Shown: positions 729 to 20,837 of the stretch, one piece after another
How positions within the stretch are numbered: position 1 is the stretch's first letter
How the letters are laid out: every line of letters begins with the position of its first letter
Virus genome (UHGV): UHGV-1781188
Source of the DNA: a virus
Strand: one strand, 5' to 3'
Length of the DNA: 20,865 bases
Notes under the pieces: generated by a model
What the model was told of the DNA's origin: nothing
Databases searched by the model: none
What the model saw: the letters and a program-made list of their open reading frames with translations, nothing else
Made by a program: the position numbers and the translations under genes

Positions 729-1148
729 ATGAACATTAAATCTAATAATCCGGCATATAGCTTTGATAACGCTTTTTGTCACGGTCCGGCGGCGAAAGGA
801 TTCGAAATCGATGGTAAACTAATTATTGTCAATGTTGACGGGGAAGAGGTTGCAGTATATCCGGTGGCAGACGTTAAAAGCCGTTTGCAATGCCGCATGG
901 ATGTTACCGCCTACCAGCTTGATCCGGTCCGCATAGTTGCCCTGGTCCTGGAGGAAGAGATCAAAGCCATGCATCATAGCAACAAGTTTATCGGTGACGC
1001 GCAAGATAATATGAAGGTATGCCGCTATAAAGTTAATGAAGTGCTTAAAGAATATGGCTTCAAAGATCTGATGATCAAGCGTGATGAAAAATTCCGTTAT
1101 CGTAACGACCTGGCAAATCGAATCTATGAAATATACGAATCATTATAA
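729..1148 (+). CDS. hypothetical protein (139 aa)
   Basis: ATG at 729 with SD taagaggt upstream; intact ORF followed by terminator. Confidence 0.65.
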   Translation: MNIKSNNPAYSFDNAFCHGPAAKGFEIDGKLIIVNVDGEEVAVYPVADVKSRLQCRMDVTAYQLDPVRIVALVLEEEIKAMHHSNKFIGDAQDNMKVCRYKVNEVLKEYGFKDLMIKRDEKFRYRNDLANRIYEIYESL

Positions 1149-1166
1149 TTTCTTAACTAAACTATC

Positions 1167-1199
1167 AGGGGCTTTAAAAGGCCCCTTTCTTTTTGTCTG
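1167..1199 (+). terminator. rho-independent terminator
   Basis: GGGGCTTTT / AAAAGGCCCC near-perfect hairpin followed by tttctttttgtc. Confidence 0.6.
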
Positions 1200-1802
1200 T
1201 ATTTCTCCTACCACAAACGGCCCAGCCTGGCAAGTGGAATAATTGACTAGCCATCAATCCAACACACTGTACAAACATACATGTAAAATAACTATTGCAT
1301 AATTTTTCATTGTGTGGTAGCAGGTCCATTTTTACCCGCTTTTCCTTCCAAAACTGCATGCAATTCCGCTATTGCACAAAATTTAACCTGATGCACAATA
1401 TCTCTTTCTTGTCAACAACTAAAAATCTTTATAAGTCATACACTTACATAACTACAAAAGCGTGTTCTACGTGAAAAATCGAGTATAACTATAGCCGCCA
1501 GATCTCAGAATTTACGTACGCTCACCATTCTATAGCCAGCTAAGTATTTATTCCGACCATAGAATAACGGAATAGTCAATATCTGCATAAAATAATTATT
1601 CGTGTAAACTGCATAACATAAATCAGCTCAGGTGTCAACATTTTTCGTAAACAGTCCGAAATTATCACGATGAGTTATCATAAACAGAGAAATCTTTAGT
1701 CGTCTAATGTTTACTGTACATTACTATACTGACTGGAATCATTAGATGACTAAGAGAAAGATAAGAAATAATTAATAGTGTAATTATTTTACCTGTAACA
1801 AT

Positions 1803-1980
1803 AAGGCAACTATGCAAACGAATGGCATGGCGCGACGGAGTCGCGACATAATATAAAAGCAGTAACCATCACCCCCGTGATAGTTTGTCTGCAATCTATT
1901 AATCAGATCATAGTTGCCTTGTATTTAGTTAATCATGACATAACAAGCAAGGCAACTATAGATCTTCTAATAGTTGCCCT
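1803..1980. repeat. 11-bp iteron AAGGCAACTAT, four copies in alternating orientation
   Basis: direct at 1803-1813 and 1949-1959; reverse-complement ATAGTTGCCTT at 1910-1920 and ATAGTTGCCCT at 1970-1980 (1 mismatch). Confidence 0.6.
1812..1831. repeat. 20-bp direct repeat, copy 1 (ATGCAAACGAATGGCATGGC)
   Basis: identical 20-mer recurs at 2073-2092. Confidence 0.7.
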
Positions 1981-1996
1981 GCTTTTATATTATGTC
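1845..1996. repeat. 18-bp perfect inverted repeat pair flanking the iteron cluster
   Basis: GACATAATATAAAAGCAG at 1845-1862 and its exact reverse complement CTGCTTTTATATTATGTC at 1979-1996. Confidence 0.7.
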
Positions 1997-2013
1997 ATAG
2001 AAACACCCGAAGG

Positions 2014-2030
2014 GGTGACCAAAGGTCACC
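2014..2030. repeat. perfect palindrome GGTGACC-AAA-GGTCACC
   Basis: 7-bp arms, 3-bp spacer; flanked by cccgaagggg. Confidence 0.6.
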
Positions 2031-2072
2031 TGGCATAGCCAGCGAAAGATTATTAACTTGCTAATCGTTATC

Positions 2073-2092
2073 ATGCAAACGAATGGCATGGC
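2073..2092. repeat. 20-bp direct repeat, copy 2 (ATGCAAACGAATGGCATGGC)
   Basis: identical to 1812-1831; followed by TTATAAT. Confidence 0.7.
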
Positions 2093-2183
2093 TTATAATT
2101 TTTGAGCAAATAGTCTATACGTGAACAGTGAGGCATGCAATAGTAACAATTGTTATTGTATCCAGTGTGTTGAGTATGCCCAG

Positions 2184-2221
2184 TGTGTCACTATTATGTC
2201 ATATTATGTCACAGTATGTCA
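2184..2221. repeat. four helically phased short repeats (TGTGTCA, then TATGTCA x3 at 10-bp period)
   Basis: TGTGTCA 2184-2190; TATGTCA at 2195, 2205, 2215; TGACATA (reverse) also at 1936-1942 and TATGTCA at 1991-1997. Confidence 0.6.
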
Positions 2222-3536
2222 GACAAGTTTTCCTCCTCTTTGTCAAGTGCTGCATGAAAAATTTACAAACTGGTATGGTAGCATTTTTGCGGCCCTGTTT
2301 ACATTCAGTAATGTATGTATAATCCTTGTTGTGTGGGCGTTTAGACGTCTAGACGGTCAGAAGTCCGCAGGTCAATAACTAATCTATCGGCTGCTAACTA
2401 TATCCCACACAAATAGTAAGAAATATAATTGTTATGTGTGTAAACAGTAACTCATGTTATCAATCCCTGTATGGATCGCCAGTGGTGCGCATAATGGGTA
2501 TTATGTTAAATTGCCCGTAATGATAACAGTTCTCACAATGATAGGTATTCTCATTCACCCCCACAAGATAGGTTGCAAATGTTGTGCCACTGTGTGAACG
2601 GCCTCACCTATTAATTTGCCTCACTGCCTCGATATTTGAGAATTGTTATAAGAATGAGAAGTATTCCCATTTCGTCCGCCTGGCAGCACTCCAGTCGCTA
2701 CCGGCTCCTGACAGGGAGGCACTCCTGTCGGTCAGGTCAAAATCATGGTATAACTGGACCTGTTCAGATATTTCTGGCTGGCTCTTCAGGTCTGTGTGGG
2801 AAAAGCCAACCTCTCAGGCGGGGCAGGGGGGTCATGACGGGAAAATTGCAGGTCAATTAAAAAATTTACGTGGTGTATGAAGCGCTCTTCAGGTAAGGCA
2901 TGTATTATGGGATGAAACCCTCTTCAGGCAATGATATTTGTGGGTGTGATATTTGCTGGAAAGCCAGATATGACGGGACTCCCGGCTGGGCAGGGGTAGT
3001 ACAGACAGGGGAAATATGGAGGATGTAGTTGGGTGAGTTGATCAGACAGGTTGGGTATAGATATGTTACAAGTATGTTAAATATGGAGGGTGAATATCTG
3101 TAGGATTTATGTGTAAAATCAAAGACTTAAGTGGTGTTGTGGTATTTTCTATAAATAATTCAAGTTTAATAGGTAATATTTGTCTCTGTCCGCTTTGTGT
3201 GGTAAGCAAATTCAGATGGTGTTGGTTTACAAGTGTATACATAATATACAAATTAAAGATACAAGAAACCCCCCTCCCCCTTCGGCTACCATTCACCTTT
3301 TCCTCTGACTGGTACTTAAACACTTATTCAGACTCTTCAGGTTATCACCCATATATCATATGGCAGTGACTGGTGTCCTCCGGCCCCTCTTTCGTCACCC
3401 GTCCGCTTCGCCATGCTAATGCCATAGCCAATGGTTCGGTTGTTCACCCTGTTCACTCAGGTGTATCTCCATACCCCTTCAAACCGAAGAGAACAGAAAA
3501 CCCGAATTACTCGGTAAAAGAAAAGAGAAGAACTTA

Positions 3537-3564
3537 ATTTTATCAGGATAGGCAAGAATGTCAA
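3537..3564 (-). promoter_or_regulatory. sigma70-like promoter directed into the non-coding region
   Basis: minus strand TTGACA (3564-3559), 16-bp spacer, TAAAAT (3542-3537); no convincing CDS downstream. Confidence 0.4.
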
Positions 3565-3691
3565 GGCATGACTGCTCACTAAACAAGCAAACAGTCATGT
3601 GTGGGAGGTAAGTGATTGTGGTGGTAGGAAATTTAGTTGAAAGATGTGTTATAGGTGCTTCCAGCACTTTAGCCGGGCAGCTAATTGTGTG

Positions 3692-3907
3692 TCAGTCCAG
3701 CGGTTCATCCTCTACTTCACTGAAATCAATGTTCATGGTCTCTTCCCAACCATCGATCTCAGCACAAGAGTGGAGTTCTTTAGGGTTTACTCCCAAAGCC
3801 TCAGCAACAGAGTCTATATTTAACACCTCTGGCAGGTATGATTCATCGAATTCAAGGTAAATCAGGCCACGAGTGTTGTCAGCTCCACCAAATATCTCTA
3901 TCTTCAT
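3692..3907 (-). CDS. small acidic protein (71 aa), MKIEI-type N-terminus
   Basis: ATG with SD agaggaga upstream; acidic C-terminus; N-terminus resembles other MK(I/V)(E/K)I genes in the block. Confidence 0.6.
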   Translation of the reverse strand: MKIEIFGGADNTRGLIYLEFDESYLPEVLNIDSVAEALGVNPKELHSCAEIDGWEETMNIDFSEVEDEPLD

Positions 3908-4026
3908 AAAATCTCCTCTGGGAATGAGAGTGTGAACAGGATTATACGTCCAAATGCGCAGGAATTATGCACGTTTGCCTCTTCAGGCCATGCTTTAGCA
4001 TGAGGAACCTGTGTGGGCTCGGTGCT

Positions 4027-4239
4027 TCATAGTCTACCACCTCTGAACTCTTCGTGCTCAGGCATAATAGAGAACCAGATATCTACGATGTCCTCCCACG
4101 TCAGGTCATCAGCCTCAGGATCTGTCTGGGACGAAGATGAAGAGTCCTCAGAATCTAAGTTTTCCTCTTTAACTGGCTCATCCAAGGGACATATGGTCAC
4201 TCCTTCGGATGTCTCTTCAGATGCATGTGTGTTGATCAT
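4027..4239 (-). CDS. highly acidic Ser/Asp/Glu-rich protein (70 aa)
   Basis: internal ATG of track ORF 4027-4440; ATGA overlap with the upstream small peptide; about 20 D/E versus 3 K/R. Confidence 0.5.
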   Translation of the reverse strand: MINTHASEETSEGVTICPLDEPVKEENLDSEDSSSSSQTDPEADDLTWEDIVDIWFSIMPEHEEFRGGRL

Positions 4240-4337
4240 GTTCCACCTGTGAGTATTCCGGCAACAGCCGCTATGGACGTAATGATCATCAGGATCACCA
4301 CTAAAACTTCGGACAATGTTCTCATAGTGTATTCCAT
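4236..4337 (-). CDS. small hydrophobic peptide (33 aa, one predicted TM helix)
   Basis: MEYTMRTLSEVLVVILMIITSIAAVAGILTGGT; SD ggaga 5 nt upstream; promoter 4358-4386 just upstream; stop overlaps the next start (ATGA). Confidence 0.45.
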   Translation of the reverse strand: MEYTMRTLSEVLVVILMIITSIAAVAGILTGGT

Positions 4338-4357
4338 ATTCTCCAAATGATGTGTGG

Positions 4358-4386
4358 ATATTATCACTGGAGCTGTAATGTGTCAA
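4358..4386 (-). promoter_or_regulatory. sigma70-type promoter
   Basis: minus strand TTGACA (4386-4381), 17-bp spacer, TAATAT (4363-4358). Confidence 0.55.
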
Positions 4387-4555
4387 TAGAAACGCCGCGA
4401 GGGTTTGGTTAAAATCCGAGCGTATGGTGATTTGGGTCAAAACGGACGTGCGTTCTCGCTACGCTCGAAATATGGAGTTGTTTGTAGGAAGCTCTTAAAC
4501 GCTCTGTAACGAGATTATCTGTCCAAGGTATGCAATCGTGCACCAGACAAAGAAA

Positions 4556-8689: not shown

Positions 8690-8744
8690 ATAGTATCACC
8701 TATGGTAAGAGATTGGGATTCCTTTCCCACAAATAATTACAAAC

Positions 8745-8761
8745 CTTCCTTGTCGAGGAAG
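8745..8761 (-). terminator. short hairpin followed by a U-rich tract (weak terminator candidate)
   Basis: cttcct / aggaag 6-bp stem; on the minus strand followed by gtttgtaattatttg; downstream of CDS 8781-9050. Confidence 0.3.
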
Positions 8762-8780
8762 TATGCTAATCCAAGCAGGA

Positions 8781-9050
8781 TTATTCCTCTACAATCTCAT
8801 ACACATCCGGAGTTACAATCAACTCTTCTCCGTTACCTGGTGCAACAAACACCACCATTCCTTCAGGTGTGTGCTTTTTAGCCATCTCGATAACATCTTC
8901 TCGCAGAGCTGGCTCCATCAGATCAAAACCTTCACCCAGGGCATCACGAACCACCTTCATATAGTCAACTGGTTGTGCTTCGACAATCATGCCTTCAACC
9001 AGTCCACAGTTTTTGTCTGCCAGCTCAGTTTTGAATAATTTAATTTTCAT
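8781..9050 (-). CDS. small acidic protein (89 aa), paralog family B
   Basis: MKIKLFKTEL N-terminus and ...YEIVEE C-terminus parallel 7357-7614; SD gaggaga upstream. Confidence 0.7.
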   Translation of the reverse strand: MKIKLFKTELADKNCGLVEGMIVEAQPVDYMKVVRDALGEGFDLMEPALREDVIEMAKKHTPEGMVVFVAPGNGEELIVTPDVYEIVEE

Positions 9051-9076
9051 TTAGAGGTCTCCTCAATTATTTGATA

Positions 9077-9178
9077 TTAATAGCCGTAACCTAACACATT
9101 AACTACAACTGCGATTGCAAACATAATTTCAAAGCATGCAATCTCTACATTTGGGACTAGTTTCTTAATCACGCCCAT
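9077..9178 (-). CDS. small hydrophobic peptide (33 aa)
   Basis: MGVIKKLVPNVEIACFEIMFAIAVVVNVLGYGY; SD gaggtg upstream, overlapping the stop of the HPF-like gene. Confidence 0.4.
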   Translation of the reverse strand: MGVIKKLVPNVEIACFEIMFAIAVVVNVLGYGY

Positions 9179-9187
9179 TGTAGCACC

Positions 9188-9505
9188 TCATTCTCCAAAG
9201 TCAATCTTTACTTTGCCTTTCCCCTTACCTTTCTTTCCACCGCATTTAGCCAGCTGACGTGCTGCAACATCTACCATACGGTCAGTTGCCTCGTAAGCAT
9301 CACCACCTTTAGCCTTGGCAATAACTTCTTTTCCAGAATTGTCAAAAATGAGCGCCATAACTTCCTGGTGATCATTTTCAACTTTTACACTCACACGTGC
9401 ATAGTTGGCAGAGGGGTGCAAACGCTCCAGCTTAGACATTTTGTGGGAAATGAAAGACACCATACCTTCAGTGATTTCTACGTTGCCAGTGATTTCAATT
9501 TGCAT
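9188..9505 (-). CDS. hpf: ribosome hibernation promoting factor-like protein (HPF/RaiA/YfiA family) with Gly/Lys-rich tail
   Basis: N-terminus MQIEITGNVEITEGM and the segment KAKGGDAYEATDRMVDVAARQLAK match hallmark HPF/RaiA motifs as I remember the E. coli proteins (N-terminal ITG..(M/V)EIT and C-terminal D.Y.AI..L...L.RQL); SD aaagga upstream. Confidence 0.8.
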   Translation of the reverse strand: MQIEITGNVEITEGMVSFISHKMSKLERLHPSANYARVSVKVENDHQEVMALIFDNSGKEVIAKAKGGDAYEATDRMVDVAARQLAKCGGKKGKGKGKVKIDFGE

Positions 9506-19541: not shown

Positions 19542-20837
19542 TCAGCAACCACAACTTCCGTAGTGCTTAACCCGTTCTATAACTTCCGCTTGCTTACCTT
19601 TATTGTAAGGACGGGAGTTTGGACTAGACAGGTACCCGGATACACGTCTGATCACACTGATCGTTCCCTCTTCATGGTTTCCACACTCTGGGCATACAAA
19701 GCCTTTAGCTGTTGCACTAAACTCACCAGAGAAACCACACTTGAGACATTTATCCACAGGTTGGTTAATACCAAAATACATAATGTGTTTATACCCGAAG
19801 TCAACAAGAGCCTCTAAAGCATCCAGGTTGTTTTTCAGATTTGGTGTCTCTACGTATCCGATGTTGCCACCAGAGGAGATCATAGCAAAACCTTCTTCAT
19901 ACTTCCACTTATCAAAAGGAGAGCTATTGATCCATACTGGCTGATGGAAACTGTTGGTGAGATATTCATGCTCGTGCTTCAACACTTCAGGATATTCACG
20001 ATCCAGACAGGTTGCAGCTTTATAGCATAGGCTCTCAGAAGGGGTGCCGTACAAGCTAAATGCTAGTCTACTTTCCTTCTTGTATCGCTCACAAGCATCT
20101 CTCATGTGCTGAAGGATTCCAAGAGCTAAAGCCTTGTCACCCTCTCTGCCCAAAATCTGACAGGTTTCATACACACCAATATACCCAATACTGATGGAAG
20201 CGTACCCGTCATAGAAGAGTTTATCAATACTCTCTTCAGGATCCAGGCGAGCAAGAGCGCCTTCACACCACATGATAGGGTTCTGCCCTGCCTTGGTGCC
20301 TTTCAGACGGTTAACCCTTACAAGGTGAGCCTCGTATGCAAGATCCAGATACTCGTCAAGAACGGCAAAGAAATCAACACCTTCCGTCTTAGCTTTTGCC
20401 GCAATCATTGGCAGGTTAAGACTAACAACACCCAAGTTGAATCTGCCGAGGTATTTCTCCTCGCCTGTTTCCAAGTCATTGTATTTGCTAAGAAAACTCC
20501 GGCAACCCATGCTCGTTACTTTACCATCTGTCGAGCCTGTCACTTTACGATTTAGTGGAACAGAAACAAAGTCAGGATAAATCCGCTCTGCAGAGCATTC
20601 CAGAGCTAATCGTTTCAAATCATAGTTAGGATCTCCAGGGTTCATGTTGACACCCTCTTCTAGGAAGAACAGCACTTTAGGGAACACAGGTGTGATACGT
20701 TCTTCACCAAGACCCATTTTGTGGACTTTCAGGTAGTTTTTGGTAATCATTCTACCAAAGACCGAGGTATCCAGTCCTAAACTCAATGTGATGAATGGAG
20801 TCTGCTGTCTCCTCCCTGTGTTTCCACAGGGCCAGAC
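19542..20837 (-). CDS. nrdD: anaerobic ribonucleoside-triphosphate reductase, C-terminal ~430 aa (5' end lost at contig edge)
   Basis: glycyl-radical motif RRVSGY near the C-terminus; C-terminal Cys cluster CLKC...CPEC; ITPVFPKV...EEGVN...DPNYD...LALEC parallels T4/E. coli NrdD; the frame stays open from 20786 to the adapter junction. Confidence 0.9.
   Translation of the reverse strand, partial: VWPCGNTGRRQQTPFITLSLGLDTSVFGRMITKNYLKVHKMGLGEERITPVFPKVLFFLEEGVNMNPGDPNYDLKRLALECSAERIYPDFVSVPLNRKVTGSTDGKVTSMGCRSFLSKYNDLETGEEKYLGRFNLGVVSLNLPMIAAKAKTEGVDFFAVLDEYLDLAYEAHLVRVNRLKGTKAGQNPIMWCEGALARLDPEESIDKLFYDGYASISIGYIGVYETCQILGREGDKALALGILQHMRDACERYKKESRLAFSLYGTPSESLCYKAATCLDREYPEVLKHEHEYLTNSFHQPVWINSSPFDKWKYEEGFAMISSGGNIGYVETPNLKNNLDALEALVDFGYKHIMYFGINQPVDKCLKCGFSGEFSATAKGFVCPECGNHEEGTISVIRRVSGYLSSPNSRPYNKGKQAEVIERVKHYGSCGC

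Follow-up and report, generated by a model that had tools for sequence, protein, structure and literature searches.

The question raised by this locus is what is served by roughly 2.5 kb of DNA without genes between two converging gene blocks in the phage genome UHGV-1781188. The window analysed here is the whole 20,865-nt stretch of that genome, and positions are numbered from its first letter. Within it, the plus-strand gene block stops at 1148 and 3692 marks the end of the first minus-strand gene, and the longest open reading frame (ORF) between these two gene ends is 98 aa. The same gap is left empty in the curated records of navn, JohannBauhin (Bas53), rV5_ev158, rV5 and FV3, and in navn the next-largest intergenic gap in the examined stretch is only ~360 nt. 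In rV5, positions 104005-106616, between genes 163 and 164, align with window 3700-1150, and on the map in the rV5 genome paper the locus appears as a grey 'non-coding' box, with no ORFs and no function assigned (Kropinski et al. 2013, PMC3606486). The gap is real, and is already in print for rV5 as a box without an explanation. The explanation reached here, from comparison of sequences, is that the gene-free stretch is very probably a genome-end, or concatemer-junction, module, of the kind used in fixed-end packaging with a short direct terminal repeat (DTR).

The comparison drew on a well-populated group of phages. A megablast search with 1150-3700 returned 122 phage records, every one belonging to Vequintavirus, the rV5-like, ~137-kb myoviruses of E. 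coli; 99 of these span the whole query at 91-95% identity, and identity is 87-95% over ~120 genomes. The 'distant' mode of blastn retrieved the same 122 records and none outside Vequintavirus with this query, and scans of IMG/VR and metagenomes for motifs gained one sister clade, at ~75% identity, and none more distant. The window was aligned with 15 relatives, giving a set of 16 phages on which the figures for variability, periodicity and ORF intactness are based.

Three lines of evidence identify the centre of the gap. Firstly, the Gotham record carries a repeat_region at 1-459 and 136567-137025, the two copies being identical, and this repeat aligns with window 2680..2222 over 459/459 positions, without gaps, at 95.6% identity; the same sequence is thus found at both physical ends of a close relative. 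Secondly, blastn shows at least ten records, from several independent laboratories, that open or close exactly at 2222 or 2680: EdH4, bov11CS3, bov25_3 and EcoIv14a_Aya start with the exact 459 nt, the first three of them opening at 2680 and EcoIv14a_Aya at 2222, window 2222 is likewise a start or end point for ECP2303, YN3, Pr121LW and Gotham, and bov10K2 and bov22_2 begin at window 2680. Thirdly, termini have been published, as a 459-bp terminal repeat for vB_EcoM_Gotham (PMC7471380), and by Korf et al., who gave 'short terminal redundancies of 458 bp' for EdH4 and HdK5, both of them Vequintavirus phages (PMC6563267). Papers on Certrevirus and Septuagintavirus contain no statement on termini. 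Hence 2222-2680 is a DTR: judged by its sequence, it is the 459-bp repeat found at both virion DNA ends in close relatives. Only one copy is present in this assembly because the two ends have been collapsed. A packaging region had been one of the roles proposed in a preliminary description of this DNA, and it is this proposal that the terminal repeat at the centre of the gap bears out.

The repeat stands out sharply from its surroundings. Its length is 457-460 nt in 16/16 aligned phages, it is almost free of indels, and its boundary sequences are invariant. On the left, TGTCA gives way to GACAAGTTTT, which forms a small palindrome (TGTC-A-GACA); on the right, CGTCCGCC gives way to TGGCAG, the boundary reading ...CATTTCGTCCGCC on its inner side, and this boundary aligns in the sister clade as one of few islands. 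Pairwise identity is 0.88-0.95 inside the repeat, against 0.43-0.59 at 2001-2200 and 0.70-0.75 at 2701-2900, and the DNA directly outside both boundaries is the most variable and most indel-rich part of the locus. Taken as a whole, the flanks, ~1 kb to either side, code for no protein but are under constraint. The features arranged around the repeat are as follows, with variability given as the proportion of variable alignment columns, and with a strand only where one is assigned.

1167-1186, plus strand: intrinsic-terminator-like hairpin (AGGGGCTTTAAAAGGCCCCT, then a T run) that closes the plus-strand gene block; terminators are annotated at the equivalent position in the Murica and Alma records.
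1190-1795: distal left arm, AT-rich, non-coding and constrained (28% variable columns), with five plus-strand TGCAYAA motifs (1296-1616).
1796-1996: branched (Y-shaped) palindromic element, recognised from repeat families and fold.
1812-1831, plus strand: first copy of a 20-nt exact direct repeat, ATGCAAACGAATGGCATGGC.
1997-2048: hairpin cassette, optional among relatives (GGGGTGACC..GGTCACC), which includes a terminator-like hairpin on the minus strand at 2017-2004.
2001-2221: array segment, with 58% of ungapped columns variable and numerous indels.
2073-2092, plus strand: second copy of ATGCAAACGAATGGCATGGC, exact and conserved in the alignment.
2093-2221, plus strand: hypervariable arrays adjoining the left DTR boundary, ending in ...TGTCA directly before GACAAG.
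2222-2680: the DTR, 459 bp, in single copy (23.5% variable columns).
2681-2870, plus strand: variable segment outside the right DTR boundary, with a GCACTCCWGT duplication and indels.
2871-3265, plus strand: middle right arm, with same-strand repeats (CTCTTCAGG, GATATTTG twice, and ATGACGGGA/GGCTGGGCAGGGG; 28.5% variable columns).
3266-3564, minus strand: promoter and predicted non-coding unit, with 95-100% identity in 119 records.
3266-3570: conserved block containing this unit (8.2% variable columns).
3571-3691: spacer that separates the promoter unit from the stop, at 3692, of the last minus-strand gene, defined by the ORF list and variability.

These parts can be assembled into a coherent, if conditional, scheme. 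Replication would generate head-to-tail concatemers with one copy of the repeat per junction, and terminase, the gene for which lies outside the window, would recognise sites in and beside it. The candidate sites on the left are the same-orientation GTRAACAGT and TRTGTCA arrays that stop at the TGTCA-to-GACAAG boundary, and those on the right are the conserved boundary ...GATATTTGAGAAT...CGTCCGCC, followed by T, together with the CTCTTCAGG repeats. Terminase would then cut at 2222 and 2680, with the repeat being duplicated as in the T7 model. For a hairpin-forming or otherwise structure-specific step, or for the replication of ends, the best candidate is the branched palindrome, which lies ~225 nt away from the repeat, and the host-type promoter in the right arm would drive a ~265-nt non-coding transcript towards the repeat.

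The palindrome is the most elaborate of these elements. In its outer stem, 1845-1862 pairs with 1979-1996 perfectly over 18 bp. The interior holds two hairpins, a small one (ACCATCAC-CCCC-GTGATAGTT) and a long one composed of four iterons, ATAGTTGCC, on alternating strands at 1805-1978. Six copies of this iteron were found against 0.13 expected, and the fold of 1840-2000 has a z of -11.85 as single-stranded DNA, or of -10.1 (plus) and -7.9 (minus) as RNA, such that the nested palindromes and iterons reported from the first inspection are real and far above chance. In the sister clade, represented by contig L005, the outer stem is again perfect, at 17 bp, with the inner eight positions altered on both arms in a compensated manner; the small hairpin retains a CACCCCCGTG core on a different stem. 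The architecture is kept there despite these changes, and in the Klebsiella phage KPP-1 without any similarity in sequence, which points to selection on the shape of the element. The two ATGCAAACGAATGGCATGGC copies bracket the palindrome, and the sister clade has a homologous 30-nt repeat pair, 243 nt apart.

Between the palindrome and the repeat, the sequence is far more fluid. The cassette at 1997-2048 is carried by some relatives and not by others, and may be a small mobile or recombining element. This cassette, consisting of GGGGTGACCAAAGGTCACC and the minus-strand terminator-like hairpin, has a 52-nt match, at 88%, to ~13.6-kb E. coli plasmids; the search for host-derived DNA yielded nothing beyond this small-plasmid match and one of 40 nt to a chromosome. 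The GTRAACAGT-type units that follow vary from 0 to 8 copies between phages, always in one orientation and with a period of ~16 nt, and are succeeded by TRTGTCA units with a period of 10 nt, of which the window has 3.5 copies at 2186-2221.

On the other side of the repeat, 140 nt from the right DTR boundary, the plus strand has a two-tract G run at 2820-2831, G4CAG6. The degenerate direct repeats noted at first sight are present, with GGCGGGGCAGGGG at 2817, GGCTGGGCAGGGG at 2984, and ATGACGGGA at 2835 and 2971. The window contains six copies of CTCTTCAGG, where 0.18 would be expected; the right arm has four, at 2782, 2885, 2920 and 3333 (span 2782-3341). The other two exact copies are beyond the gene-free region, at 3979-3987 and 20232-20240, both on the plus strand, and the copy at 3979 is antisense to the minus-strand genes there. 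Islands at 1389-1498 in the left arm and 2912-3018 in the right arm are conserved in the sister clade. In L005 (IMGVR_UViG_3300045988_159287), the genome-end region is free of genes but for one insertion at 8716-9486, a 256-aa ORF that encodes an HNH_3 endonuclease domain (E = 1.6e-18) and lies between the promoter unit and the conserved island.

A further motif, TGTGTGGG, has seven copies in the window against 0.67 expected, at positions that include 2330, 2404 (minus strand), 2793, 3598 and 4010; four lie within the gene-free region and one just past it, and two form an imperfect inverted pair within the terminal repeat (2314-2337 with 2404-2427). The contrast in composition that the preliminary description drew, between an AT-rich left half and a G+T-rich right half, also holds: GC content is 31-40% at 1350-2400, being 31-37% across the distal left arm and 31-34% at 1500-1800, and rises to 41-51% at 2550-3000, with plus-strand GC skew peaking at +0.48 over 2851-3150. 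As for the TGCAYAA motifs also remarked upon, the five local copies in the left arm stand, but the motif is not enriched across the window as a whole (11 copies against 7.8 expected).

Several points weigh against the genome-end module. The assignment of ends in this phage rests on homology to relatives, and other descriptions of such relatives differ, as rV5 was described as circularly permuted (PMC3606486), while the bov phages, in the table of their announcement, and BpE1AUH were described as permuted or headful-packaged. Library methods may be the source of these descriptions, but the conflict in the literature is real. Furthermore, the number of GTRAACAGT-type units can fall to zero, so single units of the arrays are dispensable.

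We read the element at 3266-3564 as a predicted promoter-driven, non-coding transcription unit on the minus strand. It varies less than codon position 2 of the flanking genes (8.2% against 10.5% of columns). It opens with the best sigma-70 promoter in the region, matching 11/12 consensus positions plus an extended -10 (-35 TTGACA at 3564-3559, TG at 3545-3544, and -10 TAAAAT at 3542-3537, with a spacer of 16 nt including the TG), from which transcription is predicted to start near 3530. The predicted transcribed part, of ~265 nt, ends in a G5AG6 tract (3280-3269) followed by TTT; this forms GGGGGAGGGGGGTTT at 3280-3266, which the promoter precedes by ~250 nt. Only one other two-tract G run is present in the 20.8 kb, and conservation drops sharply right after GGGGGAGGGGGGTT, beyond which some relatives and the sister clade are unrelated. 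A search of the literature on Vequintavirus transcription found nothing usable. The invariant core of the unit, 3440-3456 on the minus strand (GAGUGAACAG(G/C)GUGAACA), carries, in the opposite orientation, the GTGAACAG motif of the 2093-2221 arrays, and this motif also lies within the repeat in both clades; its sharing suggests a common binding protein, or pairing between RNA and DNA.

Two further roles have to be weighed for this DNA, of which the first is that the region is or contains a replication origin, based either on the iteron-bearing palindrome in the AT-rich left arm or on transcription primed from the promoter at 3564-3537. Such an origin would be compatible with a genome-end module, and is a possibility that we consider worth retaining, but not a probable one. 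It would account for the dip in GC content at 1500-1800, for iterons placed inside so stable a palindrome, and for a promoter-to-G-tract block that is better conserved than second codon positions and stops so abruptly. The sequence G5AG6TTT is also nearly that of CSB II, one of the conserved sequence blocks of human mitochondria (GGGGGAGGGGGGGTTTG), at which a stop in transcription yields a replication primer (PMC4176368). The arrangement that defines CSB II by sequence, G5AG6-7 and T residues on the non-template strand with a promoter upstream, is found at 3280-3266, in a window where two-tract G runs are rare. Sister-clade phages have 2-3 perfect DnaA boxes (TTATCCACA), 12-19 nt apart, within their equivalent of the terminal repeat (L005 7845-7884; also L022, L024, L027, L030, L034 and L036).

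The window, however, has TGTATAAT and TGTGTGGGCG at the positions of these boxes, and 1150-3700 contains no perfect DnaA box and one relaxed TTWTNCACA match, at 3110-3118. There is no recognisable initiator gene adjacent to the region. Examination of GC skew, suggested at the outset as a means of locating an origin or termini, did reveal a signal, and the skew changes reported for rV5 at 104425-105475 map inside the region, but these coincide with a switch in the direction of transcription, as the rV5 authors pointed out (PMC3606486), and are confounded by it. The proposal would also require E. coli RNA polymerase to terminate at a tract of this kind, and KPP-1 is without a comparable unit of promoter plus tract, its own tract matching that at 2820. 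The most specific form of this proposal is that a ~265-nt RNA stalls or ends at G5AG6TTT through an R-loop or hybrid quadruplex, and that its 3' end primes synthesis towards the repeat, with the palindrome serving duplication of the repeat; on our analysis, this is improbable.

The second role is that 3266-3564 encodes a trans-acting early non-coding RNA (ncRNA), of ~265 nt, made by the host polymerase after injection and directed at a host or phage target, with the rest of the region being packaging DNA. This too we regard as a tentative reading rather than a likely one. The near-consensus promoter with its extended -10 is conserved in the sister clade, as TTGCAA..TG.TATAAT, and the edges of the conserved block match the promoter and the G tract. 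Between them, indels of 1, 2, 5 and 19-27 nt set the sister clade apart from the window, and no ORF is common to the two, which argues against coding. Hairpins are retained by compensation between their arms: CCGAG/UCGG is replaced by CCAGAA/UUCUGG, four double changes fall in helix 3, and a long-range pair, UAUGGCA/UGCCAUA, is altered to UAUCGCA/UGCGAUG. In the RNAalifold structure, 7 of 44 pairs are changed on both sides, against 1-2 in slid controls, a count that comes from a single two-clade split and a structure derived from the same alignment; covariation is limited to this one split because the scans added only one sister clade. The predicted fold is stronger on the transcribed strand than on the other (-83 against -54 kcal/mol), but its z is only -1.3. 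The 3' edge of the unit has no canonical terminator, its U run is not conserved, and it has no match in Rfam, where three sub-threshold hits (E = 0.12 to 4.6) were the only ones at E up to 5 across 1100-3800, none of them within 3266-3564. For this unit, the trans-acting early RNA and the origin are about equally likely.

That the region instead hides one or more protein-coding genes, or consists of decaying junk, is very improbable. Small ORFs have been placed here by some annotators, as Murica gp129, FFH2 ORF150 and 14-16 ORFs in PMBT16 and NHEP1, but their positions and strands are inconsistent between records. ORFs of 40 aa or more number 15 in the gene-free region; most of these are disrupted by frameshifts or stops among the 15 aligned relatives, and the few that stay open are located in nearly invariant sequence. 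A 3-base periodicity of substitutions is absent from every 240-nt window over 1190-3650 (p > 0.26), in the same alignment in which four flanking genes display it with p = 1e-6 to 1e-11. A Pfam scan of the longest ORFs in the region gave no match, and no ORF was found to combine conservation among relatives with substitutions biased towards third positions. A scan for tRNA and tmRNA genes found nothing relevant. Junk, for its part, would be expected to drift: in the flanking genes, 14.8% of columns are variable at codon position 1, 10.5% at position 2 and 55.7% at position 3, whereas the left arm, the repeat and the right arm vary at half the third-position rate, and one block is nearly invariant. 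Variability so far below that of third codon positions indicates that the region is functional DNA rather than spacer.

The ORF list, the absence of periodicity and the annotations thus bear out the long ORF-free stretch at a convergent junction from which the preliminary description had started. That description had held that a conserved gene recognised by homology, or absence from close relatives, would count against it; as no ORF is conserved, and the gene-free region is present in all close relatives, neither is the case. Its other suggestion, that the whole 2.5 kb is one long structured ncRNA, has little to recommend it beyond the length, conservation and lack of ORFs of the region and the very stable folding of its parts, and can be put aside as highly implausible, since the virion ends fall in mid-region and split it, the stable part folds as well on one strand as on the other, in the manner of DNA palindromes, variable arrays and indel-prone segments interrupt it, the proposed covariance-model check found no Rfam family anywhere in the window at gathering thresholds, and the single strong promoter serves a conserved block that is over after ~265 nt, the only transcript-like unit.

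The genes beside the gap also merit comment. FV3, Alma and WM lack the last plus-strand gene (729-1148), a 139-aa ORF, or have other sequence in its place, and their identity to the window dips to ~0.6 over 601-1200. The protein of this gene is 92-93% identical in two more distant viral contigs, L005 and L006; it is the only part of L006 that aligns with the window, and L005 aligns in short islands besides. It has no Pfam match, and the names it has been given in GenBank ('DNA translocase', 'Rel homology domain') look like propagated guesses. Homologues of the 71-aa flanking protein are confined to Vequintavirus. On the minus strand, the longest mechanical ORF at 4027-4440, of 137 aa from a TTG start, has no codon periodicity (34/24/33), and relatives annotate shorter genes there; hence it is probably not the real gene. 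Among the records themselves, nineteen labelled 'UNVERIFIED Campylobacter phage' (MG0656xx) are ordinary Vequintavirus genomes, 88-95% identical to the coliphages here, and their Campylobacter host labels (C. jejuni in 17/19) are doubtful.

These results matter beyond a single genome, as rV5-like phages are widely isolated, and are used in cocktails for therapy and biocontrol. Vequintavirus records are opened at arbitrary points and often labelled 'circularly permuted'; a genome-end module would provide a natural coordinate origin for more than 100 genomes, would account for the spurious small ORFs in some annotations, and would mark DNA that engineering must leave intact. The region would also represent a compact set of cis elements for fixed-end packaging in a large myovirus, comprising arrays whose ends coincide with the cut site, a palindrome that keeps its shape rather than its sequence across genera, and a promoter-driven unit with a CSB II-like tract.

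Comparison with known systems places these elements in context. The DTRs of Gotham, EdH4 and HdK5 are the same sequence as 2222-2680, but the reports on those phages give the length of the repeat alone, and do not describe its link to the 'non-coding' gap or the flanking elements. The box drawn for rV5 is the same locus, likewise without ORFs; its authors differ in having described the genome as circularly permuted, in assigning the locus no function, and in finding no terminators at the junction (PMC3606486).

For the conserved unit, the nearest likeness is in mitochondria. Human CSB II, G5AG7TTTG, stops transcription whatever the polymerase (mitochondrial or T7), and so yields a primer (PMC4176368). 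The likeness between the mitochondrial light-strand promoter (LSP) with CSB II and the phage unit is one of sequence and layout only, both having a promoter followed a few hundred nt on by such a tract (here G5AG6TTT) on the non-template strand. The differences are that the polymerase in the phage would be E. coli RNA polymerase, and that the tract in the sister clade is G5-6 T(A/G) G5-6. ColE1 RNA II and the R-loop origins oriF and oriG of T4 are comparable transcription-primed systems. If a transcription-primed origin were true of this unit, it would be the counterpart in a bacterial virus of the LSP/CSB II primer mechanism.

For the module as a whole, the likeness is to T7 and T3, which also have a short direct repeat at fixed ends, with one copy per concatemer junction. 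Dunn & Studier are said to have described, in 1983, arrays of short repeats beside the repeat of T7, a phage in which transcription that enters the junction is also important for processing. The differences are nevertheless substantial: the T7 module is a few hundred bp rather than ~2.5 kb, its genes run one way through the junction rather than converging upon it, its promoter is of the phage-polymerase rather than the host type, and the phage considered here is a 137-kb myovirus. According to a passage in PMC4281155 that cites Chung & Hinkle 1990, T7 has to duplicate its terminal repeat, and a DNA intermediate with a hairpin has been observed in this phage.

A closer parallel is provided by KPP-1, a Klebsiella phage of the genus Mydovirus in the Vequintavirinae, for which doubled coverage and PhageTerm gave a 514-bp DTR of T7 type (PMC9862379). 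Its repeat sits at a gene-poor convergent junction, with a 21-bp perfect inverted repeat enclosing a 164-nt branched loop (z = -11.1) ~310 nt from the DTR, and with its sole two-tract G run 135 nt outside the DTR on the side opposite the palindrome. KPP-1 differs in having no nucleotide similarity to the window, and no counterpart to the unit of promoter plus G5AG6 was found in it. Its G run is, however, placed as the run at 2820 is placed here, and hence the order of palindrome, repeat and G tract is common to both phages. The gene-free gap is largely explained by known biology, as the terminal-repeat junction of a fixed-end phage, and it is in its size and architecture that it departs from the T7 paradigm.

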